A DNA stretch of 60,928 bases, filler included. It is 11 parts of 11 records of this genome, joined end to end, with 100 filler letters (N's around TTAATTAATTAA, not from the genome) between each part and the next. Parts side by side here need not be neighbours in the genome. Positions count along the whole stretch, not along the records: positions 54,915 to 60,928 come from SRR7504441_10474; 10 more parts are not named here. One strand, written 5' to 3'. Position 1 is the stretch's first letter; each line of letters begins with the position of its first letter. This document shows, piece after piece, positions 13,001 to 60,928 of this stretch. The notes below the pieces were generated by a model, which was not told where the DNA came from, did not search any database, and worked only from the letters and a program-made list of their open reading frames with translations. The translations under genes and the position numbers were made by a program.

Positions 13001-13503
13001 GGCGGTACGTGGTGGGGGTGCAGCTTGCTACCGACTTCAATATATCTGTGCATGATCTGGCGCTCCCACCAGGCAACCAGCGCTTTGTCAGCTACAGATA
13101 CAATGATGCACACACGTTTCACCCAACGCGTGCAGAGCTCCAGCCAGTGGTGGGCAGCCGTGTGCTCACTCTACACAAGAGTGACGACGAGAGCTGCTCA
13201 ACCGCACCGCGATTCAATATCACAACTCGGTGCTTCCCATTCGAGCTACATGCGGTTGCTCCTATCGCGTCCAATGGCTGGGTGCTTACCGGAGAGGTCG
13301 GTAAATTCATACCTGTCTCCAACCAGCGGATCACGTCTGTCGAGGAGCTTTCGACAGGGGGATTCCGGGTTGTGCTCAAGGGTGCGCCTAAAGAGAGGGT
13401 TATGATGGGTGCCGCAGATATGCGCACTAATGCTCCTGCAGTGTATGAAGAAGCGACAATCGATGAAAGCGGCGAAGCCATCTTGACTCTCCAAAGCAAA
13501 TGA
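10053..13503 (+). CDS. Secreted glycoside-hydrolase-like protein (uncharacterised clan GH-D/GH36-like TIM barrel) with a ricin-B-like lectin insert; 3 exons
   Basis: Signal peptide. GT-AG introns 10932-10975 and 12125-12177 restore the frame. Motifs LLDSWWY, FPLGL, WGLGTIKQDH, RASPDY, QWAIG, PYKDTF. QQF/CID/ELW/CLE/QGW ricin-type pattern at about 12250-12700. Confidence 0.65.
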
Positions 13504-25383: not shown

Positions 25384-25739
25384 GGGCAGACACCATCGGG
25401 CCCCACTTGTCCGGGTAGAACTCGTCTTCGTCCAGCCCGTGCACCACCTGGTAGTAGCGGAACGTCCCAAATCCGCCCATCAGACCGGCCGAGGAGAGCG
25501 CAAATATGGTCTACCGGCCGGGTGAGCCGCAGAGCCAGGCTGGGCTACCAGGATGATCGCGTGCCGATTGTCTTCGCTGAGCTTCGCAGCGCCGAACCCG
25601 ATGGCCATCACGGCTGCACCGGCCGGTGGGCGGGCCGGGAGCCGGGCCGGGCACCGAGCGCTGTTCGCATCCAGGCCAGGTAGGTCCGCTCGGCGGCCAG
25701 GTAGTCGGACGGGTCGTTGTCCTTCACCGGCACCACCAT
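25384..25739 (-). CDS. DUF202 (YidH/Vtc1-like) small membrane protein, 3'-partial; not correctly shown in the ORF track
   Basis: Manual translation MVVPVKDNDPSDYLAAERTYLAWMRTAL|AVMAIGFG... across intron 25614-25654, then GFGTFRYY. Matches the LANERTFLAWxRT signature. Confidence 0.8.
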
Positions 25740-25847
25740 CCCCGCCCACACCGGCACCACGCCCGCCTGTGCCTAAGCAACAACGGAAACGAACAAAGCA
25801 GCTGCAAGCAGCAAAGACCCGCAGCGGCGAAGACCTGTGTCGACACG

Positions 25848-27455
25848 ATGGCCTTGCTGCTGTCCGACGAGCTGTGGCGGACCATCCTACTGCTGACGGG
25901 CAGCCCGGACCCGGTGATAGCCGCTGGAGCCGCCCACTCCCTTCTCCGGCGGGTGGTCCGGGACAGCCAGCTCTGGGGCCGTCTGGCTGCTCAGATCGAC
26001 CGCAGCGGCAGCCTCAGGCTGGGCGACCGGCCTGCCCCCGCCCGGGCCGCCCGGGTGCTCAGCGCGGCGGCCTGTCGGTACGTGCGGGGGAGCAAGCTCC
26101 ACTGCTGCCACAGCTGGCCGTTCGATATGGCCGGGCTGCAGCTGTTTGCGTCCGCCGAGCTCGCTGGGCACCACTGCGTGTTCGGCGGCTGGCACGCCCG
26201 GCTGGGCCCGTGCGCTGAGCTGCTGCTCGGCCGGACGGATCAGCTCCCCGGTCGGTCTGCGGACGACGAGACCCTGGTGGCGGGCAGGGCCAACTGGCGT
26301 CTGCCGCGAGAGTCTAGCCTGGCGGACGGCCTCGGCGCTGCTGGCTGGCCGAGCAGACGGTACGGGCACACGCTGACCTTGAGCGGCCCGGCCGGCGAGT
26401 CGGCGCTGCTGGCTGGCGGGCACAGCATGCCTGGTTTCTGGAGTGAAGCGACGTCAGTCTGGCTGCTCCGGCTGGACACCAGTGGGCTGCCAGACTCAGG
26501 CCCGACCGCCCGCTGGGAGCAGATAGAGTCGAGCGAGCTGCTGCTCAGGGCGTACCACTCGGCGGTGACCGTCGACGGGCCTCGGTTCGCGGGAGGCGGC
26601 GTGCTCCTTTTCGGTGGAGCTAACCAGCGCGAGGCTCTTGGCTCGCTCACGTTTTGGAGTCTGACCAGCCAGATTTGCACTGCTGTTCAGACCAGCGGCG
26701 CAGCCCCGAGCCCGCGGGTCGGGCATACAAGCACGGTGGTGGGTGGCTCAATGGTGCTGCTGGGAGGCACTGCAGGCGTCCAGCCCCGGAGCCTGAGCTG
26801 CTGCCCAGACCCGCTGTGTGTGCTGGACTTGCACACACTGGTTTGGTCCAATGTGAACATCCCCGTCGCCTCTTTCCGGCACCTGATCCAAGCCAGCTCG
26901 TTCCACACCGCAGCGTTGGTCGCGAGCAAGTTGCTCGTGTTTGGCGGCGGGGGCAACGGCAGCAGCAGGCTGTTGGTGATGGAGGCTACAGGCTTGACCG
27001 CTGATCAGCCGGAGCTGGTGCTGTCCAAGGTGGAGGCCGAGGGCGAGCACCCGCGCTGTCGGCTGGCACACGGGATGCTGCAGGATGGGCTCGATCTATA
27101 TGTGCTGGGAGGGGTTACCTGGGATGGGAGCGAAATGACCGCGGGCTGCTTGATCCGAATGGTGCCCAGATCGAGCTGCACCAAGATAAAGTTCCAAGGC
27201 AGCCACCAGCCGGAGCCCGAGCCTCTAGTCGACCAAGCCTTGTCGCTCTGTGCCTGGTGTGCCCGGAATGACGGTGTGAGTGATGATGAAATGGACGGCT
27301 TTCCGGTGTTTGGCGAGGGCGAGAGCCAGGAATCGCCGCCCGATAGCTCGGACCCGGATGCTAACAGCTCGACCAGCGGCGATGAGTTGCTGGCCGGGAA
27401 TGTTGACTTGAACGATGACGAGACCGAGAGCAGTCATAGCAACTCGAGCCACTGA
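25848..27455 (+). CDS. F-box-like / Kelch-repeat protein with an acidic tail
   Basis: N-terminal LLLSDELWRTILLL; repeated RxGHT...hhhGG units (RYGHTLT, RAYHSAV..LLFGG, RVGHTST..VLLGG, FHTAA..LVFGG, RLAHG..YVLGG). Confidence 0.8.
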   Translation: MALLLSDELWRTILLLTGSPDPVIAAGAAHSLLRRVVRDSQLWGRLAAQIDRSGSLRLGDRPAPARAARVLSAAACRYVRGSKLHCCHSWPFDMAGLQLFASAELAGHHCVFGGWHARLGPCAELLLGRTDQLPGRSADDETLVAGRANWRLPRESSLADGLGAAGWPSRRYGHTLTLSGPAGESALLAGGHSMPGFWSEATSVWLLRLDTSGLPDSGPTARWEQIESSELLLRAYHSAVTVDGPRFAGGGVLLFGGANQREALGSLTFWSLTSQICTAVQTSGAAPSPRVGHTSTVVGGSMVLLGGTAGVQPRSLSCCPDPLCVLDLHTLVWSNVNIPVASFRHLIQASSFHTAALVASKLLVFGGGGNGSSRLLVMEATGLTADQPELVLSKVEAEGEHPRCRLAHGMLQDGLDLYVLGGVTWDGSEMTAGCLIRMVPRSSCTKIKFQGSHQPEPEPLVDQALSLCAWCARNDGVSDDEMDGFPVFGEGESQESPPDSSDPDANSSTSGDELLAGNVDLNDDETESSHSNSSH

Positions 27456-36992: not shown

Positions 36993-37317
36993 ATGTCGTT
37001 CACCCAGCGGAGCTCGGGGGGAGGGCACGCGTACGTGGCCCGCCGGATCGAGGACGACGGCTATTCCTGGGCGGAGCTGTTCTCATCGGCGGTGCTGCTC
37101 GGTCTGGCGGTGCTGGTCATCGGTGGCGGGTGACCGAGCGCCGGCCGGGCCGTGCCGAGCTGGGGGCAGCGGGTACTACTTCCTGAACCTGATGTTCGGG
37201 GAGGCGCTGGGCAAGCTGTGGCGGTCGGCTCGGGGGCTGTGCTTCGGGGAGGCTCGGGCGGTGCGCAAGGAGCACAGCGGTCGACGGGGCAAGAAGAAGG
37301 GCTCGCGGCAGGGTTAG
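36993..37317 (+). CDS. Small single-pass membrane protein (about 95 aa), 2 exons
   Basis: MSFTQRSS...WAELFSSAVLLGLAVLVIGG|GGYYFLNLMFG...GKKKGSRQG after removing a GT-AG intron of about 40 nt near 37130-37169. Confidence 0.45.
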
Positions 37318-37380: not shown

Positions 37381-38466
37381 TCACTGCCCGCTCCGCACCT
37401 TGTGGATGAGCCGCAGCACCAGCTCGGCCTCGTCTTTGCCGCTGGGTTTGCTATCATACCCGCCCAATTCGTGTTGATTCGGCCACATTTCAAGCAATTC
37501 AGCCGGCCCAGTTGGCGCGGGCCGGTCCCGCTGGAACAGCCTGTGGAGCAGCCGGGCCATGGCGGGTTCCACGTAGTGCAGCGAGACTAACTGGGCCGCG
37601 CAGCAGCCAAGCCCTGTGTGCAGCTCTTCCCCTATATTGTCCTTATAATCTTTGTACCATCCATCAACCCGGCCCGTTGCCGACCTCACTAGCCCGAAAG
37701 CATTAAACCGCTCCTCCCCGCCATCCGTCCGGGTGTTGCTCAGTATCAACCCGAGCTCCTGCAGGCACCCGCTCAGCGCAACGTCGTCGCTGTCCTTAAG
37801 GAAGTCCTGCGCTCCGACCTTGAGCCCGCAGCCGGTCTCCCAGTCTGCCAGCAGGCTCTCGACTGCAGCCCGGCTGAACACCATCCCAGCCCCGCCGCTG
37901 ACGAACTTGTCCCCGGCGTGGTAGCGCGTCTGGAGCCTGTTGCCGAGCATGAGCGGCTCTGTGGGGTCCAAGGTGGCGAGATAAGCCAGTAAGTGCTGGG
38001 GGAGCAGGAACGATATATCGTCCACCTTCACCACCCAGTCCGGTCGATCCAGCTCGGCCAGCGCCCGCCTGAGCCCCCACACCAACTGCTCGGTCCGGCG
38101 CTGCTTGGGCTGCCCTACTGGCAGGTTGAAAGCCATTCCCGCAGGGGCGGCCGGGCTGTTCAGGAAACGGACTGTCAGCGGACCGGAGGCCCAGGTTTCG
38201 AGGATGGCCTTGACCCGAGCCGGGTGCCTCTGCGGGTCCACGGTGGTCTGGGCCACCAGCACGGCCACCCGCGGCAACTTTGGCGGCGGCGGCGGTTCGA
38301 GCGGCACCGCTGGGGGAGGTGGGTGCACGCGGCGGGGGGCCGGATCCGGGCTGGGCGGTCGGGACTGCAGCGGCTGCGTGGGCAGCAGCACCAGCAGCGC
38401 CAGCCCCGCGAACGGCACCGAGCAGCCGACGAGCGCAGCCACCAGCAGCCGCCCGAGCCGGGCCAT
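37381..38466 (-). CDS. Glycosyltransferase family 31 (Fringe/C1GALT1-like beta-1,3-galactosyltransferase)
   Basis: Type II TM plus Pro-rich stem; ILETW, DWVVKVDD, LDPTEPLMLG, SGGAGMVFS, DDVALSGCL, CCAAQLVSLHY. Confidence 0.9.
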   Translation of the reverse strand: MARLGRLLVAALVGCSVPFAGLALLVLLPTQPLQSRPPSPDPAPRRVHPPPPAVPLEPPPPPKLPRVAVLVAQTTVDPQRHPARVKAILETWASGPLTVRFLNSPAAPAGMAFNLPVGQPKQRRTEQLVWGLRRALAELDRPDWVVKVDDISFLLPQHLLAYLATLDPTEPLMLGNRLQTRYHAGDKFVSGGAGMVFSRAAVESLLADWETGCGLKVGAQDFLKDSDDVALSGCLQELGLILSNTRTDGGEERFNAFGLVRSATGRVDGWYKDYKDNIGEELHTGLGCCAAQLVSLHYVEPAMARLLHRLFQRDRPAPTGPAELLEMWPNQHELGGYDSKPSGKDEAELVLRLIHKVRSGQ

Positions 38467-38545
38467 GAGAGAGCAGTCCACCGGCGCGCTGTCCAACGGC
38501 AAGTTCGGTTGGGATACAGCCGTGGGCAGCTCACTGGGCAGCGGC

Positions 38546-41500
38546 ATGGAGGCTCGCGGCAGGCACCGGGCAGGGGCCCGAACGCGGTGCCGGACGTCGG
38601 TCCACGCCCCGGCCACCAGGGCGAGGAGCCGAGAGTCGGAGCCACAGAGCGGCTGGCACGGGGGCCGTCCGCCGGGGAGCGCCGCTGGCAGGCTGCTGCT
38701 GATCGCGGTTGCCGGCTGGTGCTACCAGGCCGCTCGGGCGGACAGCACAGTCGAGCCGTTTAACTGTACGGAGATTACCCCGCCGCTGTTCTTGTACCGG
38801 GGTCTCACGCTCATGGAGCTGGATCCGACTTCGGGGGCGCTACGGACACTGTACGCCCTCCCACAGAACGTGAACGCTGCTGGGCTGAGTGCTGCAGATA
38901 GTAAAATGTACGGGACAGTGAGGGAAGCTGGGTCATCGTATGTTGTACGGTTCGACCAAAACAGCGTTGAATATCTGGCAACGGCCGCGTTGGACGGCTA
39001 CAGCATAGTCGCCGGTACTGTGGATTATTCAGGGGACTACTTCTTCCTGACTCGAGTGCCGAGCGGCGTGTCGACTGATACTGTTGGCCTGTACCGGCTT
39101 GCTGACGTGGCATCGATGCTCGGTTCCTCCAATCCAACCAATTTAAGGGAAGTCACTGGGGCGGACCGAGTGATCGACCTCTCCAGCACGATAGCGACAA
39201 GTTATGACGCGTTAGGAGACATCACGTACCTGCGGGCCGACCTGGAAAGCACCGGCACCGCTCAGGATTATCTGATTGGAGTGGCAAACAACGCGGTGGC
39301 CCTAGTGATGCAACCCTCAAGCGGTCGGTATTGGCAGCTCAGCTTGAGCGGCGATGTCCAGATGAGGCAAGTGGGAGCTGCCTTTACAGTGACTGAGGGC
39401 GGCGAGGAGTTGACACTCTTCTTGCACATCTCTGGCAAGCTGGTAGCACTCCGCGACATTGATCTCTCCACCGGCTCTGCTGTCGTGGGCCTGATGTCTT
39501 CAGTTGCTGGTGGTGACGGCCGGGGTGACGGCTTGTCGTGCAAAGTGCCCTTAGCTGCGACCACCACAGCGCCCTCTACGGCGCCCTCTACAGCGCCCTC
39601 TACAGTACCGCCTTACACAACTGAGCCGGCCGCGCCCTTCACACCTGAATCGGCGGCCGTGGCGACTATGAGCGCAGCCGTGGTCTGGACCTTGGTGGGA
39701 GTAGCAGTGCAGCTCGGAACCGTCCCACCTGTACTGCTAAGCCGGGCCGGACTCCAACGCCCGGTCGGGGCTGGTGCTAGTTTGGTGGTCGGGCTTTTGA
39801 CCACTGACCTTGTGCTTAGTGCAGTCCAAGTGGGTGGTTCATTCGGGCAGGCAGGTGAACGGCGAGGCGGGCTCGCAGATGCCACGGCTATCACAAGCCC
39901 ATGGGCCATCAGCGTGCAGCTGGCCCGAATGCTGTTTGGCGCCATGGTGGCCGCAATAGTCTTCTTTCCGGACTGTGGCGGCCGTGGATTCCTACATAAT
40001 GGGCTCCTTGCGTTTGTGCTGGCTATTCCTGGGGCTGTACTCGTAGGCACCTCATTGGGTTACGAATCCAAACAGGGATGGAGCAACATGCTCACGGGCG
40101 CAAACTGCGGCAGCAGCGAGGCTGCGTTGTTTTGGATGGTAGCGTGCCTTTGGACGACGCTTGTCTGGATTGTTTGGGGCATAATTGCAGGCCTCTGGCG
40201 TGCGCCTCGGAACACAAAGTGTTTTGTATGTGTGGGTGCTTTCTTTTTCTTCTGGGGCTCATTGGCCCTGACAGATGCCACCAGCGCATACACCCGATCT
40301 ACGCACCAAGCCGACTTTGCTGGTCATACGACCGAGCTCGAGATCGTGTGCCGGATGGCCGCGTTCGTGTGCCAGTTGACGTCTGTTGGGGTGCTCATGA
40401 TCGCAATCATGGCCGACTCGAACTGGTGGGCTCAGCTGTGCGCTGAGTGGGATGGCTCCAGATCAGTTTGCCCAAAGGGCGACCATCTGACCACCGCCGA
40501 GGAGGCGCATGAGCGGCTGTCCGAGCATCGGCTTATCATTCCGCCTGAAGAAGTCTGGGTGGACTCGAGTGCTCCGCTGGGTGGTGGCGGCAGCGCTGTC
40601 GTGTGGAGGGGAAAATACAAGCAACAGCCAGCCACCCAAGATGACTGCTGTTGCAGCTTCACAGAACGCGGTGACCACCGGGAGGTGGAGATAGCTGTGA
40701 AAAGGTTCTACTTCGACCGCTTAGTACCTGAGGTGGTCGACGAGGTTTTAGAAGAATGCTACATCTGCTCGATGCTCGAGCACCCTCATATCGCCAGATT
40801 CTACGGAGTGGTCATTCGACCGCCTCACATCGAGCTGATACTCGAGCTCTGTTCCCGTGGCTCGCTCCACGACGTGCTGTCTGAATCCAATTTGACACGG
40901 TCTGAGCGCCTTGCGCTGGCACTGCAGGCTGTGCAGATTCTTTGCTGGGTGCACTCAGAGTGGCATGTGCTGCACCGCGACGTCAAGAGCCTTAACTTCC
41001 TGTGCACAGTCGACCAGCCAGACGAAGCAGCGCCGCAGCTTCAAGTCAAGCTCGCCGACTTTGGGGCCTCGGCGCTATGCGCTGCAAGGCGGGGGTCGCA
41101 CGCTCCCTCTTAGCGCGACCGAGCCCACTGGCCAGGTACGCTAAATGGCACAAGCCAGGGACTTGGTGCATGCGGCGGTTTAGAGAAGAGGAGTCGCCTA
41201 GCTACAGTGTGCCGTGGGCGGCACCCGAGGTATTCACGCTGTACGGCGCTCGACTGGACTGACCATCGGTGCAGGTGCTGAGGAGAGAGCCCTATACATT
41301 AGCTTCGGAGGTGTTCTCAGCGGCCATTGTAGTCTGGGAATGTCTCAGTGGGCTATCACCATACGCCGAGTTTGAAGATCTGGAGATTGTCGAGCGAAGG
41401 ATCGCATCTAACAGCCCACCACTGAGGCCAGCAATTCCCGACGAGACACCCACACAGTTGGCAGCTGTGCTCAGCCAGTGCTGGGCTCACAACCCAGAGG

Positions 41501-47419: not shown

Positions 47420-50400
47420 ATGAGAGTGGTGTGCGTCGTCGGGCTGCTGTTGGCTTCGGCGGCGGCGGTGGACACCGAGGTGTCGGCGCTGCTGAGCACG
47501 ATGTCGCTGGCAGACAAAGTGGGCCAGATGACCCAGATCAACATCGACAAGGTCACTGAATGCGTCACCGGGCCCGACGGCCAGCAGCAGATGACCGTAA
47601 ACAGGCCGGCGCTCCGGACCTGGCTCAGCCAGTGGCGGATCGGCAGCCTGCTCAACTCGCCGTGGGCCGGTACGCAAGGCCCCACCTGCGGGCGGCTCGG
47701 CTGGGACGCACGTTCCTGGCGCGGTGCCATCCAAGCCATCCAGGAAGAGGCTGCGGCGGCCGGGCTGCCGCCGATCTTGTTTGGGATCGACTCGGTCCAC
47801 GGGGCCAACTATGTCCGTCGGGCCGTGCTGATGCCGCAGCAGATTGGCCTGGCCGCCTCGTTCGACGAGCGAGCCGCTGAGAGGTTTGGATTCATCACCG
47901 GGCGGGACACCCGGGCCGCCGGGATCCCGTGGCTCTTTGCGCCGATCCTAGGGATCGCCACCCAGCCGCTCTGGCCGCGCGTGTACGAGACCTTTGGCGA
48001 GGACCCGCTCGTGGCTGCCAGGCTCGGGAGTGCTGTGATAGTCGGGATGCAGACGCCAGCCCCTCCAGGGGAATACCCGGCGCGGGCGGCAGCGTGCGCC
48101 AAGCACTACATCGGGTACTCGGATTCGCGGTCCGGGCACGACCGGGCGCCCGGCTGGATCCCGCACCGGCACTTGCTCCAGTACTATGCCCCGCCGTTTG
48201 AGGCCGCTGTGGAGGCGGGCGTGCTGAGTGTGATGGAAAGCTACAGTGAGGTGGACGGCGTGCCTATGGCCGCGAATAAACTGCTGCTCCGCGAGCTGCT
48301 GCGGGATCGAATGCAGTTTGACGGGATGATGGTGACGGACTGGGCCGAGATACAAAATCTGCACGGGTTTCACCATGTCGCCTCCTCTCCTGAGGACGCG
48401 GTTTGGCTTTCGATCAACCAGACCTCGATTGACATGAGCATGGTGCCGCTCGATGCCTCGTTCGCCCAGATTTTGGTCGGGCTAGTCGAGAGCGGCCAGC
48501 TGCCCGAGTCTAGAGTGGACGAATCGGCCGGGCGGGTGCTTCAGTTGAAGAAAGACCTCGGATTGCTCGAGACCCCGGTCCCAGGCTTGCACCAGGACAC
48601 TGCATACCTGCAGTCCGACTTGATTTCGCAGGTCGGATCGGCCCAAGACGTGGCGGTCGCTCGGGACATGGCCCGGAGCGCGATCGTGCTGCTGCAGAAC
48701 GGCAACGGGGGCGTGTCGAGAGAGTGCTGCCGAGGCCGGCCGGGTGCTTCCATAGGTGATGTAAGAGGTGCGCTCGACTGGCTGTGCTCCGGCTGGGCTA
48801 AGGAGGACTGCGTGGCCGGGTGGGCCAGCCTTGACGATGCCGCAGCTCGCCAGGAGTTCAGCAAGTGGGCTGATGCGTGGTATCAAAATAATCCACGGCC
48901 GGAAAGCTGTGACTTTTCGGGCTCAGCCGAGCTGTTTGATTGCAGCACTGGGCCAACCAACGTGTTGCTGCCCCTTCCAACGGACACACCGCAGCGTGTG
49001 CTTGTGACTGGCCCCACCGCAGACTCGATTGGGTCGTTGAGCACAGGCTGGAGCATCCATTGGCAAGGAGTCACGGACGACTCAGAATTCACGCACGGCT
49101 CATCGATCAAGGCTGCCATGGAGCAGCTGGCTGGGACTGTGGCGGCAGCAGGGTCGGTCGTGGAGTACACGGAGGGCTGCAAGATCCGGGCCCCGACCCA
49201 CGCCACGGCGTCTTGCGAGTTGGTGGACCTGCCCGGCACCAAGGCCAAGGCAGCTGCGGCAGATGTGGTCGTGGTGTGCTTGGGCGAGGAGCCTTACACC
49301 GAGAAACCGGGTGACATTGATCAGCTCGAGCTCAGTTCGGGCCAGATCGAGCTTGTCAAGGCCCTGGACGCGGCCGGGACGCCTATTGTGCTGGTGCTGG
49401 TCGAAGGCCGCCCAAGACTTCTGCAGGGAATTCAGCGGCTTCCTAACGTGCATGCGGTCGTCCACGCACTCGCACCTGGCCCTGAAGGAGGGCTTGCAGT
49501 GGCCGAGGTCCTATATGGCGCGGTAAACCCGTCGGGGCGGATGCCAATCACGTACCCTGGCTCAACCGGAAGCATTCACTACCCACATTGGCATGCAGTG
49601 AGCAGTCAGTGCGCCGGGTCTCCAACTTTCCTGTCAGCCGCAGTCCAGTCGTGCCCAGTGGACTTTCTATTCGGTCAGGGGCTTTCTTACACCACATTCG
49701 AGTATGAAGCGTTCCGTTGGTACACTGCCCCCTGGCGTGCAAGCTCTGCCGGAGAGCAGCAGACGACTCTGGCAATAGGCAGCAGCTTTACGGTCGATCT
49801 TGAAGTCCACAACACCGGGCCTCGCGACGCCAACCACTCGGTGTTACTCTACTTCATACAGCACTACCGAAGAGTCACGCCTGAGGCCAATCGGCTGCTT
49901 GGGTTCAAGCGAGTCTCGGTGCGCGCAGGCGAGAGAGCTGCAGTTTCGTTTGCGCTGCATACGAGCGACTTCATGTATGTTGGAGTGGACTTTGATAGAG
50001 TTGTTGAAACAGGACTCTACACCCTCGCACTTGGGCACGCCCAGTATGGGGCCCCGAGCGCCGAGGACGGCCTGCTCATGAATCTCACCCATGCTGAGTG
50101 CCCCTCGAGCACGGGGCAATGCCCAGTCTCGATGACCCGTCAAGCTGACAGCCCAGCGACTGAGCCGCCTACAGATCCGAGGAGCCAACCGACAGCCCCA
50201 GCGCCCAAGCCCGCGCTGTGTGGCACCAACACCGACTGCCCATCTGGGTACAATTGCTTCGACACCATAGATGACACGGCGACCGACGCTGCCGACGTGT
50301 TTCGTGTGGAGCTCTCCGATGAGGAGAAGTGTGCCGCTCACAAGCAGGAGACTGGATTGTGCACTTGTCTAAGGACCAGGCAGAGGACTAAGGCGCCCAC

Positions 50401-50674
50401 AGCCTCTGCCGACGATTCAAAGGCCAGTGGCGACACTTCTGACAGTGGGAGCGGAGTTTGGGCAGTGGTCTGCTTCTTCCTCGTTGGAGGTATTCTGGGC
50501 AGTCTGGCGGTGCTATTGACTCAAAAGTTCCTTATGAAAAGGAGCGATGACGACGACGTGCCTCGGTCAGTGGCCGGTAGAGCTCTCCAAGCCGAGGAAA
50601 CGTACGAGCAGCGGTCTCATGAAGGACACTCGATGCTTTCTGGCAATGTGTCTGTGGATCTTGAGAACCGATGA
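47420..50674 (+). CDS. Membrane-anchored GH3 beta-glucosidase with an inserted X8 (CBM43) domain
   Basis: Signal peptide; KVGQMTQI, GIDSVHGA, RVYETFGEDP, CAKHY, nucleophile MVTDW, GEEPYTE, NPSGRMPITYP, FGQGLSYT; Fn3-like domain; Cys-rich region; C-terminal TM. Uninterrupted 1084-aa ORF. Confidence 0.95.
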   Translation: MRVVCVVGLLLASAAAVDTEVSALLSTMSLADKVGQMTQINIDKVTECVTGPDGQQQMTVNRPALRTWLSQWRIGSLLNSPWAGTQGPTCGRLGWDARSWRGAIQAIQEEAAAAGLPPILFGIDSVHGANYVRRAVLMPQQIGLAASFDERAAERFGFITGRDTRAAGIPWLFAPILGIATQPLWPRVYETFGEDPLVAARLGSAVIVGMQTPAPPGEYPARAAACAKHYIGYSDSRSGHDRAPGWIPHRHLLQYYAPPFEAAVEAGVLSVMESYSEVDGVPMAANKLLLRELLRDRMQFDGMMVTDWAEIQNLHGFHHVASSPEDAVWLSINQTSIDMSMVPLDASFAQILVGLVESGQLPESRVDESAGRVLQLKKDLGLLETPVPGLHQDTAYLQSDLISQVGSAQDVAVARDMARSAIVLLQNGNGGVSRECCRGRPGASIGDVRGALDWLCSGWAKEDCVAGWASLDDAAARQEFSKWADAWYQNNPRPESCDFSGSAELFDCSTGPTNVLLPLPTDTPQRVLVTGPTADSIGSLSTGWSIHWQGVTDDSEFTHGSSIKAAMEQLAGTVAAAGSVVEYTEGCKIRAPTHATASCELVDLPGTKAKAAAADVVVVCLGEEPYTEKPGDIDQLELSSGQIELVKALDAAGTPIVLVLVEGRPRLLQGIQRLPNVHAVVHALAPGPEGGLAVAEVLYGAVNPSGRMPITYPGSTGSIHYPHWHAVSSQCAGSPTFLSAAVQSCPVDFLFGQGLSYTTFEYEAFRWYTAPWRASSAGEQQTTLAIGSSFTVDLEVHNTGPRDANHSVLLYFIQHYRRVTPEANRLLGFKRVSVRAGERAAVSFALHTSDFMYVGVDFDRVVETGLYTLALGHAQYGAPSAEDGLLMNLTHAECPSSTGQCPVSMTRQADSPATEPPTDPRSQPTAPAPKPALCGTNTDCPSGYNCFDTIDDTATDAADVFRVELSDEEKCAAHKQETGLCTCLRTRQRTKAPTASADDSKASGDTSDSGSGVWAVVCFFLVGGILGSLAVLLTQKFLMKRSDDDDVPRSVAGRALQAEETYEQRSHEGHSMLSGNVSVDLENR

Positions 50675-54914: not shown

Positions 54915-56085
54915 CGAGCGAGTCCATCGAGGCGTACACCTGCACAAGAGTCAGACCGGCCCTGGCTGCAAGGGCGCCTCCGGGCTGGTTCGCTGCTGGT
55001 TGCGCTTGTGCAGCCACCACCAGAGCAGGAGTCCACCGAGCAGCACCGCCACTATCACACTCCCGCATATCAGCCCGAGCTGCCACCCCGGCATCCCGTT
55101 GGAGCCTGTGGCCCAGCTCAAGCCTGGCGTGCGGCTCCCCGGGCATGACACCTTTGTGTTGGGCTGCCATCTTGCTTGAGAAGGAGATAGTGTGGCCGTC
55201 GCTCACACCGGTGAAGTGTTCGTCCTGAGCAAGGCCATTTTCCATTGCAACATAATGTTCATCGTCTCCGTCGAGGATTTTTTCACTGGCGGTGGAGGCT
55301 CCATAATCTACCTTGGTGCCTCCACTTGGCTGAATATCGAAGGTCAGTCCACCACTGAATAACGGCTTGGCTTGCAGCCTGGATCCGCGCGCTTGACTGC
55401 CCGCTGGCTTTACCAGTGATACAGTGATTACAAGCCTGTCGCTTGTTGCCTCCGCAGGGTATTCGTCCACCGAGTGAGCGTGGTAAGGGCACATCTGGCC
55501 GGTCCAATCATTCTTGACCTTGAAGAACACCAGCGCCCCCGGCTGAGGCTCAATAGAGATCTTGCTTCGAGGGAACACAAGCCGGCCGGTCCCCTCGGGC
55601 GCCCCATTCTGCAGGTAGATGAGCGCGATCGCGTCGGGGTGCCCGCCGCCCTGTTCCAGGCTCATAAACTCGTTGTGCACCGGTATCGCCGGGGTGCCTG
55701 GCAGCGACCTCCGCACCGGCAAGTGGGTCAGCCCGGACACATCGGCGTCGAGCAACTTCCCGAGCATCTGCCGGATCCGTTGGAGAACCTTGTTGTCGCC
55801 GACCGGCATCACGCCGCACAGCCGGGTGTCGTTATACCGGCCCGCCTTCCAGTTGCCCTGGCACCGGACCATCGGTGGAGCACCGCTCACCAAGCTCTCG
55901 ATCTCCTCCGCGCTAAGCACGTCATCCGCGAGCGCAAGGTGTGGTGCGGTGCTCAGCAGCCGCAGCCCGCCCGGCAGCCCTTGATGCTGTGTGGCTGATG
56001 TTTCACTCGAATATCGGAGCGCCGTTGCCACCAGGAGCGCAACCGAGACCGGGCCGGCCAGCTGGTGTGTTCGGCTCTTCTCCAT
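54915..56085 (-). CDS. Prolyl-4-hydroxylase-like 2OG-Fe(II) oxygenase, probably membrane-anchored; 3'-partial
   Basis: LLSTAPHLALADDVLSAEEIESL, VHNE, ALIYL, GRLVFP, IEPQPGALVFF, HAHSV, RLVIT; a downstream exon encodes TM LICGSVIVAVLLGGLLLWWW. Confidence 0.7.
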
Positions 56086-56134
56086 GATGAGACCAACCGC
56101 CCGCTCCCGCGATGCCGTTACCGTTAGAAATTTG

Positions 56135-59068
56135 ATGAACATGAATGCCCCGGCCCCGGTGGACCTGCGCACGGCGACCAAGGAAGAGCTCCAAGGGATT
56201 GCTGGGGTGGGAGAGGTGCTCGCCGGGAAGATATTTCAGCAGCGGCGGCGCTGGTGCTGCCTGGAGGACGTCAAGAAGGTCAAGGGGATCAGCGAGGCCA
56301 AATTTGCGCGGATGCTGGGGGACCGCCACTACTGGAGCCGCGAGCCGCTGCCGTTGGCCCCGGTGGACCACAACCGACCGGTCAACCGCGAGCCTGAGGG
56401 CTGCAGCAGCGGGTCCGACGAGTCCGACGAGCCGCGGGGCGACTCGGACAGCGACCTGGAGGATTCGGAGCTCGACCTGGAGGATTCGGACCGGTGTAGC
56501 AACGCACAGGATGAGGAGGCGGACGATCTTTCCGACCGATTTAAAACGGCCACTGCGCTTGGGCCCAGGGATGACGGCCTGATGAGCCCAGAGCCGCCCG
56601 CTGGCCGGAGCAATAGCACCGCGCCAGGGCTGCTACAGGCGACAGCCAAGGCTGCCGTCAGCGGGGTGGGCGCGCTGGCCAGCACCGCGTTTACAGTCAG
56701 CCGAGCGGCCGGCAGGGCAGTGAACAACATCATAAGCATGCGGTACAGCTCAGCCAAACCGGAGCCGCCCCGTCCAGTCCGGATCGGGCTGAACAGCCCA
56801 CATACCAATGCCTCCAATAACATTGCACCAGAAGAGCGGCGAAAGGCTCGAAGGGCTGTGCTGAGGTGCCGAGGCGGCAACTGGTTGCTGGAGCAAGCGG
56901 ATGATCCAGCGAGTAGTCATTTGTTTGAAGAGAACGAATTCGAGCGCGAGGCTCGGGCCAGGCTGGTGGATCAGTTGGGCTCTGAGCGACAGTTGCGGCG
57001 GCTGTTCCGACAAGAAGGGCTGGAGCGGCTGATGTGCGTTAACTATAAGGAGATGAGCAATAGCTGTGACGAAATTGAGCGTTGGTTGCAACGATCGCAC
57101 CGTTATGATGGCCACGAATGGGAGCTGCTGCTACCCTCGTGGGAGAGGCCCGTAGTATGGATGTGGGCTGCGGATGGGACGGCTCGGACTAGTCACGTTG
57201 TGCGCGAGAGTCTGCTCCCATTGAGGCTGCAGCCAGGCGGCCAGATGTTGCTGCACAAGTATGTGAAGCGACTCAAGCTGCAGATGTCGACCACTGTTGC
57301 CACCCGCCGAGTGCGTCTGGAGTTCGAGCCAGATAGGTTTGCGGCGGATGGGAGCAACATGACCGACGGATGTGGCCGGATGCACCCAGAAACTATGCTC
57401 CGGCATCGTGTGGACTATCTCCTGAAGACCCGGGCCAACCAGGCTATCTGGCCAGAGATGCTACGAGGCAATCCATTCATGCAGATTCGCGTCGACGGGA
57501 GGATCAAGGGCGGAGTCATACCAGACCCCAACGTGTCTCAAGGCGTGCTCAAGGTGACTGATTCGATGAAGAAGTTTGATTCGGGCTCGCCGGATTCGGG
57601 GATGGTCGAGGTTTGTTCGGTTGGGTTTGCGAAGGTGCGGAGGGAAGTCAGCCTCAGCTTGCACCTGCTATATGTGCTCGAGGCGCGTGGTTGGATGGCA
57701 GAGGACATTCTGGAAGTGTGGCAGGAAAATCTAGATGGCAGCTTGCAGAATGCTCTCGAGCCAGCTGAAGACGGGCTGCCTAAGAACAGCTACGATGATC
57801 TCCAAAAGATGCTCAGTGGCGGGATGAAGATCGGCGAGGATCCGTTCCTGACCCACAAGATCTATGAGCAACACATCAAAGAGCTCGAGGGCGCCTCGGC
57901 ATACTTGAGGGATCTCAAGAAAGACAAGCAAAAGAAGAAGCAATTCCAGTTACACCTCCGCCCAGAGCAAGCTGGATACTTCTTCATCGCCTGGGATGCG
58001 TCTGGGCAGTTACATGACGAGCAGTGCTACCTGCACTGTGATGGGAAATGGAAACATGGAAGAGTGGCACTGCTCAGGAATCCCTCGTACCGCTCGTACG
58101 ACGTGGTGGTTCTTGACTGTGTTGTGCCAGCAGCGGCAGTAGTTGAGTATTATCACGACTGGCAGTATCTGCCAACTGAAACCATTATACTGTCGGCAAA
58201 TATGAAGAACGCGACATCACTTGCAGGTAGACAATCAGGCGGGGACCAAGATGGCGACAAGTCAATAATCATAACAGATGAAGAGATTGTGCGGTTAATC
58301 AGTGAAAATCCAAAGCCACGACAAGCGAACGGGCTTGCTGAACATCTCAAGAACGGAGAGAGTAGGGTCAGCTGCCAAATGAGCCCGCAGGAAGTCAACA
58401 GTCAGCTAGCATTCTGGGCGAAGACAATGTCGACATCTTGTCACCAGATTGGGATCAACACCAATCATCTGCTCAAACTGTGGGAGGCCTATGGTGTGGA
58501 TTCCGAGCAAGCTGACCAGGCTGCAAATTTGTGTGAGCGGCAAGTGGACAGGCCCTGGCAAGCTCAGAAGCCAGCACATGCCATGTGGCCAACTCCACGG
58601 TCAAGCTGTCTGAGGTTCAAGCTACGAGATCATCTGGAGCGCAGAATCAAGGATATCAAGGATAAGAGGCATACCGCAATACTTCGAGCCACTGGAGACT
58701 CTGATGTGCTGGCTCTCATTAAACGCGAGGCTGGCCACTTACAAGAAGTCGAGGGCCGCGTGGAGAGGTGCATTCAAGATTTCAACAGTGACGTCGCTGA
58801 AAGCTGCAGAGCTCAAGACAATCTGACCGAAATCATGCGCGATAGTATCATGCCGATTCATTCGCAAATATTTCGGCAGCAATTCTCTGCGGTCGTCCAA
58901 GATCTGGCCGCACTTGCGGCGTACAAATTGACAATGAGCAGAGTCCGAAAGAATTTGACCGGCCCTTACAGCGAATCTAACCCATTGACCGGGTGCACGT
59001 TCGTTTACAGAATCGCGTTAGACAATTTGCTGCAATTGAAAGCTAAAGCTCGTATACAAGACAGCTAG
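56135..59068 (+). CDS. Cellular RNA-dependent RNA polymerase (RDR/QDE-1 family) with an N-terminal ComEA-type helix-hairpin-helix domain
   Basis: MTDGCGRM, MQIRVDGRIKG, SMKKF, WDASGQL, LLRNP, SGGDQDGD, QVDRP in the canonical order. N-terminal VDLRTATKEELQGIAGVGEVLAGKI...EDVKKVKGIS. Single uninterrupted ORF. Confidence 0.9.
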   Translation: MNMNAPAPVDLRTATKEELQGIAGVGEVLAGKIFQQRRRWCCLEDVKKVKGISEAKFARMLGDRHYWSREPLPLAPVDHNRPVNREPEGCSSGSDESDEPRGDSDSDLEDSELDLEDSDRCSNAQDEEADDLSDRFKTATALGPRDDGLMSPEPPAGRSNSTAPGLLQATAKAAVSGVGALASTAFTVSRAAGRAVNNIISMRYSSAKPEPPRPVRIGLNSPHTNASNNIAPEERRKARRAVLRCRGGNWLLEQADDPASSHLFEENEFEREARARLVDQLGSERQLRRLFRQEGLERLMCVNYKEMSNSCDEIERWLQRSHRYDGHEWELLLPSWERPVVWMWAADGTARTSHVVRESLLPLRLQPGGQMLLHKYVKRLKLQMSTTVATRRVRLEFEPDRFAADGSNMTDGCGRMHPETMLRHRVDYLLKTRANQAIWPEMLRGNPFMQIRVDGRIKGGVIPDPNVSQGVLKVTDSMKKFDSGSPDSGMVEVCSVGFAKVRREVSLSLHLLYVLEARGWMAEDILEVWQENLDGSLQNALEPAEDGLPKNSYDDLQKMLSGGMKIGEDPFLTHKIYEQHIKELEGASAYLRDLKKDKQKKKQFQLHLRPEQAGYFFIAWDASGQLHDEQCYLHCDGKWKHGRVALLRNPSYRSYDVVVLDCVVPAAAVVEYYHDWQYLPTETIILSANMKNATSLAGRQSGGDQDGDKSIIITDEEIVRLISENPKPRQANGLAEHLKNGESRVSCQMSPQEVNSQLAFWAKTMSTSCHQIGINTNHLLKLWEAYGVDSEQADQAANLCERQVDRPWQAQKPAHAMWPTPRSSCLRFKLRDHLERRIKDIKDKRHTAILRATGDSDVLALIKREAGHLQEVEGRVERCIQDFNSDVAESCRAQDNLTEIMRDSIMPIHSQIFRQQFSAVVQDLAALAAYKLTMSRVRKNLTGPYSESNPLTGCTFVYRIALDNLLQLKAKARIQDS

Positions 59069-59165
59069 TATTCAATAAACCAACTACTCAAAGTGTCTCA
59101 AAGTCTCACGAGTCTGCAATTGTGTGGTGTGACCGTAGCGCACGTGATTGTTATAGGATATATTA

Positions 59166-60800
59166 TCATATTGGCCGAATGGGTCCGGTTAGAAAATCTG
59201 GATTTCGACTAGGCTCTTGGGCCGTGGTGGCGTTACGTTCGACTCTGGCGCCGTCATGCTCGGTACTAGTTGCCCTGCACAGCAGCAAGCAGTTCTCGAG
59301 TGAGCCGTGCTCGCTGTCTGCATTGCAGTAGAACATCAGTTGCGCATCGATCCCGCACTGGCGCAGCCGCTCCACCCGCCCCATGTCGAGCAGCCGCTTC
59401 ACCTGCAGTCCGACCTCCACCCGCTTCTCCACCGTCATCTCCGACTCAGCCTGCCCAGGGCTCCGGCTATTCGACGCTTGTCCAGGCCTCTCGCCTGAAC
59501 CCAACTCAGCTCGAGCCCGCGCATCTGAGCACCGCACACAGCCCAGCTAGACATGCACCGCAGGTACTCAAACTCCCTCCGTGAGAACCCGATCGACTCG
59601 AGCCAGTGTTTGCCCACATAAGAGTGCCAGTGACACCTGCCCACAGACTGAATCGATTCCGCCCCAGCACAGACCTGTGGTGGCAGCAAAGAGCAATCGC
59701 CGCCCCGCGCACCGGGACTTGGGCCAGCTTCCCGCCGACCAGGCTCCGGAGCGCATAGTCGGTGGCCTGGCCGCACAGATGCTTGCCCACCCCAACCACC
59801 GGCCTGCCCCCGCTCAGTCCTGTATCGCACCCAACACTCACCGGCCGCCAATCTCCTCTAGACCGGACAGCTCGAGGTGCTTAATATCTATCCGGTGCCT
59901 GACGTACCCAACCCGTCGGTGGTACCTGTCTGTCGGTTAGGGCTGCCCCGGCCCGACCGACCGATCGTCCTTGCAACGCACACTCCCGCAGTCTAGCAAC
60001 ACGTGTACAGCCTGGTCGCCCGTGGCCGCAGCCAGCGTGTGACTCAGCCCGCCTTTGCCTGCCCCAAACTCCACATAGCACAGATCCCCCGACAGCATCC
60101 CCTGCCCCCAGCGGTGCGCGACGGATACCGGCAGCGCACCTCGCTACGCAGCACCGACGCAATAGCAGCGTTCTGTGTGCCGTGCTTGAGGGCCTTCTTG
60201 CCCACCGCTGCCTCGTCCGGCTCGGCCTGCTCCCCTGGGGCCGCGCTGTGCGCCGCCTCGCGCGCCCGGACCATAGCAGCCAGCCCATAGCTGTCCGGGG
60301 GCGCCTGAGCGAGCTCGGGAACCCAGCGGGCGGACGCCTCGGCCACTCGGGCGCACAGCCGACCAATCTGCTCCTTGCTGAGCTGCGACAGCGTGTTGCC
60401 CGCCCCGGCCGCACTGGCCACGGCATTGACCGACGATTGGTCCGGGGCCGAGCTACTCTCGTCCCCGCTGCCCGCGTTGGCGTCTTGCCGGTAAAACACG
60501 CAGCCTGCCCCCGCCTGAGCCGGGCTCGCCAGGCGGCGGCGCACCACTGAAGTCGGCCCGGCGAGCGGCATTGCACCGCTTGAGGTGCTTGGCCAGTCGG
60601 TTGCCCTGCTGGCGCATCTGGTCGCCGCAGCGCGGGCAGGCCACCAGCCCGTCCGGCTGCGCGTCGCCCTGGTGGTGCTGGCAGCGGTCGCTCCCGGCTA
60701 TCCGGGGCTGGGTGCAGTACCGCCGCTTCTTGGCCAGCCACTCGCAGCACCGCTGCTCATCCTGCTGCGCCGGTGGACCTCCCTCCGCCGCCGAGGCCAT
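59166..60800 (-). CDS. TRM13: tRNA:m(4)X 2'-O-methyltransferase Trm13, multi-exon
   Basis: CCCH finger CEWLAKKRRYC...CQHH; CHHC-type finger ACPRC...LAKHLKRCN; EFGAGKG; KHLCGQATD; IALCCHH; SSWA; KRLLDMGR; SLENCLL. Confidence 0.92.
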
Positions 60801-60853
60801 CTCGTCTTTTTTTTTTAATCTGGGTCGGCCGTTGGACTTAGTCTAAGTCAGCC

Positions 60854-60928
60854 ATGGCTGTTGTCGTTTCAGCGTGGCGCAGGCCGCTGGTCCTGTGCCT
60901 CCTGGCAATCGCCACACGCCCAAGCGCT
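60854..60928 (+). CDS. 5' fragment of a probable secreted protein
   Basis: MAVVVSAWRRPLVLCLLAIATRPSA, signal-like; cut by the window end. Confidence 0.4.
   Translation, partial: MAVVVSAWRRPLVLCLLAIATRPSA

Follow-up and report, generated by a model that had tools for sequence, protein, structure and literature searches.

A predicted single-polypeptide combination of a ComEA-type HhH domain and an RNAi-type RdRP in an uncultured marine protist

Silencing polymerases and HhH proteins already described

A key unsettled question in RNA silencing is what directs cellular RdRPs to their proper templates, and the known answers rely on partners, namely Pol IV for RDR2 and RPA plus a RecQ helicase for QDE-1. 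QDE-1 of Neurospora/Thielavia (PDB 2j7n, 5fsw, 7y7p-t) is the precedent for an RNAi polymerase acting on DNA; it uses both DNA and RNA templates, and its action needs separate RPA and a DNA helicase (PMC2950127, PMC9508822). The titles of PDB entries 7y7r and 7y7s of QDE-1 also name a 'DNA template'. Plant RDR2 (PDB 7eu0, 7roz, 7w82) belongs to the same family and, according to the PDB titles, acts at a DNA template via coupling. This coupling is a protein contact with Pol IV and not a DNA-binding domain of the enzyme's own. The N-terminus of RDR2 is an RRM. Helicase-RDR fusions (RDR-gamma), in which a nucleic-acid-handling module lies N-terminal to the RDR, are recorded in oomycetes, Dictyostelium, Hydra and Nematostella (PMC4791657).

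Bacterial ComEA and ComEA-related HHH_3 proteins provide the other half of the comparison. DNA binding is the established role of ComEA-type domains, and the C-terminal HhH of human KIF22 (Kid) acts as a DNA tether. Here we describe an ORF from a marine protist in which, judging from sequence, a domain of this type is joined to an RdRP. Both component families are known, and their combination is apparently new.

One reading frame with two domains

The window is the whole stretch of DNA analysed, 60,928 nucleotides in length, and consists of 11 concatenated contigs with spacers N44-TTAATTAATTAA-N44 between contigs. Physical linkage to the fusion gene is restricted to positions 54915-60928, a 6014 bp contig of a metagenome-style assembly whose source is an uncultured marine single-celled eukaryote. 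The features of this contig are listed in Table 1.

Table 1. Predicted features on the contig with the fusion gene, in window coordinates
Feature	Coordinates	Strand	Basis
2OG-Fe(II) oxygenase-like gene, head-to-head neighbour	54915..56085	-	weak Pfam match, below cut-off
HhH-RdRP fusion CDS, 977 aa + stop	56135..59068	+	0 in-frame stops
ComEA-type (HhH)2 domain (Pfam HHH_3), aa 8-60	56156..56314	+	Pfam, phmmer, alignment, model
Linker without confident predicted structure, aa 63-269	56321..56941	+	model; collinear RNA-library contigs
Eukaryotic cellular RdRP domain (PF05183), aa 270-814	56942..58576	+	Pfam, RDR alignment, profiles, fold
Catalytic metal-binding loop D704-Q-D706-G-D708 (DxDGD)	58244..58258	+	alignment; RNA-library contig 58164-58420
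C-terminal helical region, aa 815-977	58577..59065	+	low-confidence model; without Pfam match
Trm13 tRNA methyltransferase gene, tail-to-tail neighbour	59166..60800	-	stop 97 bp from fusion stop

The genes on either side of the fusion gene are both of host type and are separated from it by gaps of about 50 bp and 97 bp. The oxygenase-like gene is truncated by the contig end, and its ATG (56085-56083) lies only 49 nt upstream of the fusion ATG, so there is no space for upstream exons. The Trm13 gene has at least three introns of 38-40 nt each. No paralogue of the fusion gene was found within the 11-contig stretch, and there were no Rfam matches on it. An alternative in-frame ATG is present at 56084.

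An earlier sequence-only reading of this DNA had proposed a single uninterrupted ORF carrying an HhH pair, an acidic linker and a full RdRP motif series, and this was confirmed by the frame, the Pfam matches and the alignments. The ORF is uninterrupted from 55991 to 59068 (+) and encodes 977 aa from the ATG at 56135; any unspliced or in-frame-spliced mRNA would encode the fusion because these 977 codons are stop-free in one frame. Both Pfam families that the same reading had named, HHH_3 (PF12836) and PF05183, scored above their cut-offs in this ORF. No stop falls in the ORF frame of the 621-nt linker, whereas the five remaining frames have 6, 10, 2, 2 and 6; shuffling left the linker stop-free in just 65 of 20,000 cases. 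What the sequence and the models show is both domains with their motifs, the HhH fold, and an unbroken frame from one domain to the other.

We considered whether the fusion might be an artefact of the gene model or the assembly, with splicing or an internal transcript start yielding the HhH and the RdRP separately, or a chimeric join bringing them together. Such an artefact would fit a contig of just 6014 bp, an assembly with very short and easily missed introns, an architecture for which a second example was not found among 158 relatives, and the finding that no RNA contig spans 56135-56940. However, both domains share one frame of 977 codons without a stop, and GC3 in 300-nt bins starts high at the HhH and falls from 5' to 3' (0.88, 0.75, 0.66 ... 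0.55) as a continuous gradient, without a renewed peak where the RdRP begins. The same 5'-to-3' fall was found in the GH3 (0.89 to 0.66), kinase (0.90 to 0.65) and Kelch (0.88 to 0.71) genes. The stereotyped 3' signature of the mini-introns of this assembly, GGGGCAG, does not occur in the fusion ORF; relaxed settings gave a sole candidate of 44 nt with its end at 58139, inside the conserved catalytic region, and its removal would break the frame.

RNA-library contigs also bear on this point. Four contigs of 149-257 nt, from three marine metatranscriptomes of three studies (two polyA), matched the fusion at 56315-56463, 56438-56588, 57758-57992 and 58164-58420, with at least 99% identity to the DNA for three and 95-99% for one; all are collinear with the DNA, although DNA carry-over is possible. 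Word shares of the RNA runs were 0.05-0.06, and the rest of the 6-kb contig was without RNA coverage, which is uninformative. Reads or transcripts over 56150-57400 had been proposed as a check on the gene: the first two contigs run collinearly through 56315-56588, directly after the HhH, whereas none of the four bridges the HhH and the RdRP. Taking these observations together, we consider an artefact unlikely. A single native gene for HhH and RdRP is the most likely interpretation, with a single transcript being inferred.

HhH domain, linker and polymerase

The N-terminal domain is, by its sequence, a ComEA-type (HhH)2 domain, but without ComEA orthology. It scored 33.1 bits on HHH_3 (PF12836; cut-off 27; aa 8-60) and 24.6 bits on HHH (PF00633; cut-off 24), and phmmer against the PDB gave the ComEA-related protein 2duy (3.7e-5) and ComEA 8dfk (4e-5). 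The model of ComEA proper, TIGR01259, reached only 27.8 bits (cut-off 152.35), with the match confined to the HhH region (aa 7-60). The two hairpins are G24-V-G26 and G51-I-S, the second having G-I-S rather than G-I-G, and G24, G26 and G51 are invariant in an alignment with 21 HHH_3 proteins. In the structural model, with pLDDT above 90 over residues 11-60, helices are predicted at 16-20, 27-39, 43-48 and 54-62. The top fold match is 2duy (TMt 0.80, rmsd 1.6 Å, 39% identity), for which the Foldseek E-value is just 6e-3 owing to the short domain. This is followed by ComEA 8dss, and KIF22 and XPF are also among the matches, through their DNA-binding HhH domains. The domain therefore has the family and fold of the bacterial ComEA and ComEA-related HHH_3 proteins (2duy, 8dfk/8dss). 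Unlike them, it is a single copy joined to an enzyme in a eukaryote, and it is without the signal peptide or membrane anchor with which the aligned bacterial proteins begin. The HhH of KIF22 (PDB 2edu), third in the fold ranking, likewise places this small fold on a eukaryotic enzyme, but it resembles the present domain only weakly (E 0.08, 23% identity) and is attached to an unrelated catalytic unit, a kinesin motor.

It is possible that the fusion is real but that the HhH has a different function, binding RNA (template or product) or mediating dimerisation or partner recruitment in what would be an ordinary RNA-templated RDR. Below the two ComEA matches, the weaker fold matches include HhH domains involved in protein contacts, namely those of PsbU (photosystem II), the ERCC1-XPF dimerisation region and the NusA-N complex. 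In addition, the acidic tract beside the domain, with 22 D/E, could compete with nucleic acid, and QDE-1 is a dimer in crystal structures. However, the closest relatives in both sequence and fold are ComEA-type domains with their DNA-binding role, the hairpin glycines are invariant in the alignment with 21 HHH_3 proteins, and the domain is basic, with a net charge of about +4 over aa 1-68 when counted from the sequence. We regard this function as somewhat unlikely.

The linker includes the acidic tract at aa 85-135 (56387-56539; 22 D/E and 4 K/R in 51 residues), followed at aa 235-240 by the basic cluster RRKARR. A 14-nt direct repeat occurs at 56152 and 56356, with a spacing of 204 nt. This repeat raised the possibility that the linker is a decayed second HhH repeat, which was rejected: in-register identity was 37%, no better than at other offsets, and the peptide score was equalled by 21 of 500 shuffles.

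The RdRP is predicted to be a divergent eukaryotic RNAi-type two-barrel polymerase that is catalytically complete. PF05183 was matched with 129 bits (cut-off 23.8, E 3.1e-37) over profile positions 12-538 of 582, as compared with 258-318 bits for five full-length relatives, which points to its divergence. The RDR motifs MTDGCG, QIRVDGRIKG (with one extra residue) and LLRNPSYRSYD aligned with those of five full-length RDRs, and within SGGDQDGD the alignment with other RDRs shows no variation at G702, G703, D704, D706, G707 or D708. Variation at the second residue of the DxDGD loop is common among RDRs (PMC4791657). No helicase family was matched in the fusion protein by Pfam at E <= 1. The locus thus differs from the helicase-RDR fusions, which have an ATPase module where this protein has a 55-residue passive predicted DNA-binding domain.

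With QDE-1 the fusion RdRP shares PF05183, the DxDGD loop and the motif series. A profile that included the fusion protein found RDR2 at 2.5e-68 and QDE-1 at 6e-63, and a profile of the small clade found QDE-1 at 1.4e-4 and RDR2 at 0.044. The full-length AlphaFold model, made from a nine-row alignment, is poor (mean pLDDT 48, pTM 0.36); against the PDB, this poor model ranked QDE-1 (3.9e-16) ahead of RDR2, with phage two-barrel polymerases behind both, and its TM values against QDE-1 and RDR2 are just 0.24-0.27. QDE-1 is therefore the top match in both fold and clade-profile searches, with RDR2 scoring below it, and this profile and fold ranking leans weakly towards QDE-1 over RDR2 as a likeness and not as a phylogenetic placement. 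With the fusion protein alone, phmmer against the PDB returned no QDE-1 chain at E <= 1. QDE-1 also differs in being without an HhH, and its structural-alignment identity with the fusion is just 15-18%.

Possible function, origin and relatives

The domain combination suggests a polymerase tethered to DNA during its work. DNA binding, catalysis of RNA synthesis, the templates used and a link to silencing are attributed to the protein by analogy, only from what is known of the two families. Our preferred reading, which we put forward tentatively and with somewhat less than even confidence, is that this is a native intronless nuclear protist gene for a single HhH-linker-RdRP polypeptide that would hold the polymerase on DNA and feed silencing. 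The basic (HhH)2 domain would contact DNA at its sugar-phosphate backbone, regardless of sequence, keeping the polymerase, through a flexible and partly very acidic linker of about 200 residues, on DNA or chromatin so that RNA would be made locally. The enzyme might copy ssDNA into aberrant RNA and then dsRNA, in the manner of QDE-1, or it might turn nascent transcripts into dsRNA where they are synthesised, like RDR2 beside Pol IV. The RNA product could then enter a small-RNA silencing pathway.

The sequence-only reading had envisaged an enzyme that loads itself on DNA and produces aberrant RNA or dsRNA. This is a reasonable idea, while its version for ingested DNA found no support. A more far-reaching form, a self-contained DNA sensor, seems distinctly unlikely. 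Here the HhH clamp would load the polymerase on naked, damaged or invading DNA (for instance that of giant viruses) with no helicase or RPA, and the DNA would be transcribed into aberrant RNA and dsRNA. The acidic tract would mimic DNA as an autoinhibitor that is freed on DNA contact, and the protein would give marine plankton a QDE-1-like pathway in one polypeptide. Under the preferred reading of a DNA-held silencing polymerase, the natural joining of an RdRP to a generic DNA-binding domain would hint, in the manner of a 'Rosetta stone', at DNA-proximal RdRP action beyond plants and fungi, in marine protists, and constructs with and without the 60-residue domain would offer a simple means to probe DNA tethering. 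If it is a one-off in one uncultured lineage, the fusion would be a mere domain-shuffling curiosity.

The contrast between an intronless fusion gene and an intron-bearing Trm13 gene was upheld, but the retroposed or viral/mobile origin once read into it was unsupported. Had the gene been taken up recently from a viral or mobile source, or arisen as a retrocopy, it would stand outside the host silencing machinery. Besides the introns (at least three) of Trm13, such an origin might be read from the viral label of the top language-model look-alike cluster (63 members, score 0.91, PF05183 on 25%) and from the HhH part, whose closest clusters and sequences are prokaryotic or phage. Against this, the assembly is rich in long intronless ORFs (870-1084 aa, with GH3 at 1084), the composition and GC3 gradient of the gene are like those of other genes of the assembly, its flanks are of host type, and no terminal or target-site-like repeats surround it. 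Two IMG/VR scans gave no tblastn-confirmed relative, tblastn against 50,697 phage records gave no match, and the best PHROGs score was 21.8 bits as compared with 129 bits on the eukaryotic PF05183. A YonO-like phage or bacterial affinity had also been raised, but phage polymerases rank below QDE-1 and RDR2 in the fold search. A foreign origin is therefore very unlikely.

The absence of a described HhH-RdRP fusion, assumed in the sequence-only reading, agrees with our searches. The literature search found no description of one, although supplementary or InterPro architecture tables may still hold an example. The 158 relatives fetched comprise 16 with a match to the RdRP part and 142 with one to the HhH part; none matched both. 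Word-indexed homologue searches with the whole protein, with residues 265-977 and with the alignment each passed none of 8000 scored candidates, and metagenome scans for an orthologous locus gave pattern matches, none of them confirmed by tblastn. The three closest relatives are gene fragments of 138-240 aa with 36-46% identity. Two of the five full-length relatives, P0047 and P0059, have DEAD/Helicase_C domains, P0047 also having RecQ_Zn_bind, and the one cluster with a name among the ten looked up is a fungal RdRP (P0131).

Architecture of the HhH-RdRP protein

We identified a plus-strand ORF that is open throughout (55991-59068), as the sequence-only reading had claimed, and that encodes 977 residues (P0001) from the ATG at 56135. 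A second in-frame ATG, at 56084, overlaps the start codon of an opposite-strand 2OG-oxygenase-like gene; a start there would add 17 residues (MMRPTARSRDAVTVRNL), rich in R, S and T.

The N-terminus of P0001 matches HHH_3 (Pfam PF12836) at residues 8-60, scoring 33.1 bits where the curated cut-off is 27, and two ComEA-type proteins were matched in a phmmer search of the PDB (about 4e-5). The NCBIfam ComEA HhH models cover the same 55 residues with scores far under their whole-protein cut-offs, so this is a ComEA-type domain rather than a ComEA orthologue. It is basic (net charge about +4), and aligning it with 21 short HHH_3 proteins shows no variation at the hairpin glycines G24, G26 and G51. 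In the AlphaFold model built from that alignment, residues 11-60 have pLDDT >90. By fold the domain is closest to 2duy, a ComEA-related protein of Thermus (TM 0.80 on target, rmsd 1.6 Å, 39% identity), then to Geobacillus ComEA and, more weakly, to KIF22's HhH domain, PsbU, XPF, Tex and TEFM, in line with the earlier assignment to the ComEA type. On either side of the HhH module lies one copy of a 14-nt direct repeat (GGCCCCGGTGGACC, encoding APVD), exact and placed at 56152-56165 and 56356-56369, a spacing of 204 nt or about one HHH_3 repeat period. The two 204-nt units showed no further mutual similarity; the repeat may be due to chance or may be a trace of module gain.

The RNAi-type polymerase domain (RdRP, PF05183) spans residues 270-814 (E 3.1e-37, 129 bits). 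Alignment with five full-length RDRs showed that MTDGCG, QIRVDGRIKG, LLRNPSY and SGGDQDGD are kept, the last with its three catalytic aspartates (D704, D706, D708), and the motif series was thus complete, as first read. A profile including P0001 reaches 2.5e-68 against Arabidopsis RDR2 and 6e-63 against QDE-1. The model of the whole protein is of poor quality (pLDDT 48, 9-row alignment); its fold search still ranked QDE-1 first (3.9e-16), then RDR2, then phage two-barrel polymerases; QDE-1 stands weakly above RDR2 both here and in a small clade profile. Profile search places PF05183 and HHH_3 in one ORF, and the evidence for both domains shows the description of 56135-59068 as an HhH-RdRP fusion to be correct at its coordinates.

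P0001 joins a basic ComEA-type domain, of a DNA-backbone-binding family, through a long, flexible, acidic linker to a complete RNAi-type polymerase. We infer, at somewhat under an even chance, that the HhH would tether the polymerase to DNA. Such tethering is attractive because of precedents among the fold matches, which include QDE-1 structures with a DNA template and, by their PDB titles, structures of RDR2 bolted to Pol IV. According to PMC2950127 and PMC9508822, QDE-1 can copy DNA as well as RNA and depends for its action on RPA and a DNA helicase. The main rival, which we judge unlikely, is a non-DNA role of the HhH in contacts with RNA or protein, a use known for some of the HhH domains among the fold matches. 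The probability left beyond the alternatives weighed here and below goes to further readings, a decaying gene among them. The architecture was confirmed, the interpretation as a DNA-targeted silencing polymerase is partly supported, and ingested DNA as its target is unsupported.

Continuity of the gene and its introns

The 60,928-base window is broken up by ten pairs of 44-N runs, each around TTAATTAATTAA (N44-TTAATTAATTAA-N44), and consists of 11 pieces that are 3.0-9.7 kb long and have a G+C of 52-64%. Since these are separate contigs, neighbourhood across the spacers is not real, and the true neighbours of the fusion gene are those on the final 6014-bp piece (54915-60928). The nearby oxygenase-like start codon leaves no room upstream of it.

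Neighbouring genes and mini-introns, in window positions
Feature	Position	Strand	Remarks
2OG-oxygenase-like gene	ATG 56085-56083	minus	head-to-head with the HhH-RdRP gene, 49 nt upstream of 56135
Trm13 (tRNA methyltransferase)		minus	downstream of the fusion ORF; stop 97 bp from the fusion's stop
Trm13 mini-introns	60544-60505, 60139-60102, 59841-59804	minus	end in GGGGGCAG; bridge frame switches
Mini-intron	2160-2200	+	cutting joins 719 + 614 open codons
Mini-intron	54396-54357	minus	cutting joins 138 + 105 open codons
Mini-intron	37130-37169	+	38-41-nt class

HhH and RdRP share one frame. Their 621-nt linker (residues 63-269, 56321-56941) has 0 stops in that frame, whereas the five others have 6, 10, 2, 2 and 6, and only 65 of 20,000 shuffles were stop-free. 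A 51-residue tract of this linker, described earlier as acidic, holds 22 acidic residues. Third-position G+C (GC3) drops markedly downstream of the start codon in genes of this assembly: from 0.89 to 0.66 in GH3, 0.90 to about 0.65 in the kinase, 0.88 to 0.71 in Kelch and 0.82 to 0.67 in 10053-11183. Three ORFs lack the fall (4098-5465, 2234-4045 and 12181-13503), and the first two of them are apparently interior segments of larger genes. In the fusion ORF the series is 0.88, 0.75, 0.66, 0.67, 0.69, 0.70, 0.55, 0.54, 0.55, high at the HhH and with no second peak at the RdRP, where a separate gene would begin; this fits a single transcription unit of native composition. Most long ORFs of the assembly have a GC3 of about 0.88 over their first 300 nt and of 0.55-0.70 further on (for example 47420-50674, 38105-41113, 25626-27455 and 56135-59068), and the fall is a usable marker of true gene starts here.

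Two 150-nt contigs of a polyA metatranscriptome are collinear with 56315-56588, immediately after the HhH, and further RNA-library contigs map to 57758-57992 and to 58164-58420, a stretch that crosses the catalytic loop. As none of these contigs bridges the two domains, and such libraries can contain DNA, the matches favour one gene weakly. No transcript spanning 56150-56950 was seen, and a gene-model or assembly artefact is a further reading, which we consider distinctly unlikely. The fusion comes from a single 6-kb contig.

In Trm13, stereotyped GT...AG segments of 38-40 nt bridge the frame switches, three in number where several introns had been noted, and their removal restores the Trm13 motifs. 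The same class occurs on other pieces. These mini-introns are ultra-short (38-41 nt) and GC-rich, start with GTG/GTA, end with (G)GGGGCAG and join long open frames; we know of no description of such a class. GGGGCAG occurs 0 times in the fusion ORF, and the one candidate obtained there under relaxed criteria would disrupt the reading frame within the conserved catalytic region. An intronless gene is therefore most likely, as had been proposed. The mini-introns are unlike those described in PMC3491373 for the Mamiellales big outlier chromosome, which are 40-65 bp, AT-rich and motif-less. ORFs 3-2363 and 2234-4045 (+) are apparently a single gene of >1300 codons that a 41-nt mini-intron interrupts; ORF 3-2363 contains a CBM60 xylan-binding module.

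Relatives, novelty and origin

The window pieces carry eukaryotic genes (Patched/sterol-sensing domain, Kelch repeats, protein kinase, GH3 glycosidase), and sequences 95-100% identical to pieces of the fusion gene occur in three metatranscriptomes, marine or seawater, that stem from three studies. This points to the assembly of an uncultured marine protist.

HMMER was run exhaustively over 1.84 billion representative proteins and yielded 332 matches at E <= 0.001. Among the best 150 of these, 142 matched the HhH only, mostly with 2-7 tandem HHH_3 repeats, and 8 the RdRP only. Most of the 21 aligned short HHH_3 proteins have a hydrophobic, signal-like N-terminus, and LTD domains were found in 2 of 12 Pfam-scanned HhH relatives, one also with PKD. 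Three RdRP relatives are fragments (138-240 aa, 36-46% identity) and five are full-length RDRs (22-25% identity). None of 158 fetched proteins matched both parts on local re-search (16 RdRP, 142 HhH), searches for related loci yielded no orthologous one, and full-text literature search, supplements aside, found no description of the fusion. Among papers on the distribution and origin of RdRPs, PMC3417536 leaves it out of all three "RdRP" passages, and the main text of PMC6396948 has "HHH", "helicase" and "fused" 0 times. As far as searched, the domain combination is unprecedented and lies in a divergent protist RDR; given the limits of the protein, locus and literature searches, "not found" differs from "does not exist".

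The intronless state had been taken as a hint of retroposed or viral/mobile origin. Intronless ORFs of 870-1084 codons are common in the assembly, which makes that state uninformative on retroposition. The top look-alike cluster by language model carries a viral label (score 0.91; 25% of its 63 members have PF05183), but no mobile-element repeats flank the gene, no relatives were found in IMG/VR or phage records, and the best PHROGs score was only 21.8 bits. Foreign origin therefore seems very improbable, and the hint was not borne out.

Helicase-RDR fusions are known from oomycetes, from Dictyostelium, from Hydra and from Nematostella, according to PMC4791657. Two of the five full-length RDRs, P0047 (1508 aa) and P0059 (1392 aa), carry N-terminal DEAD/Helicase_C domains, P0047 with a RecQ zinc-binding domain as well. 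In combining a RecQ-type helicase with an RdRP, P0047 parallels the QDE-3/QDE-1 pair of Neurospora, whose two members are separate.
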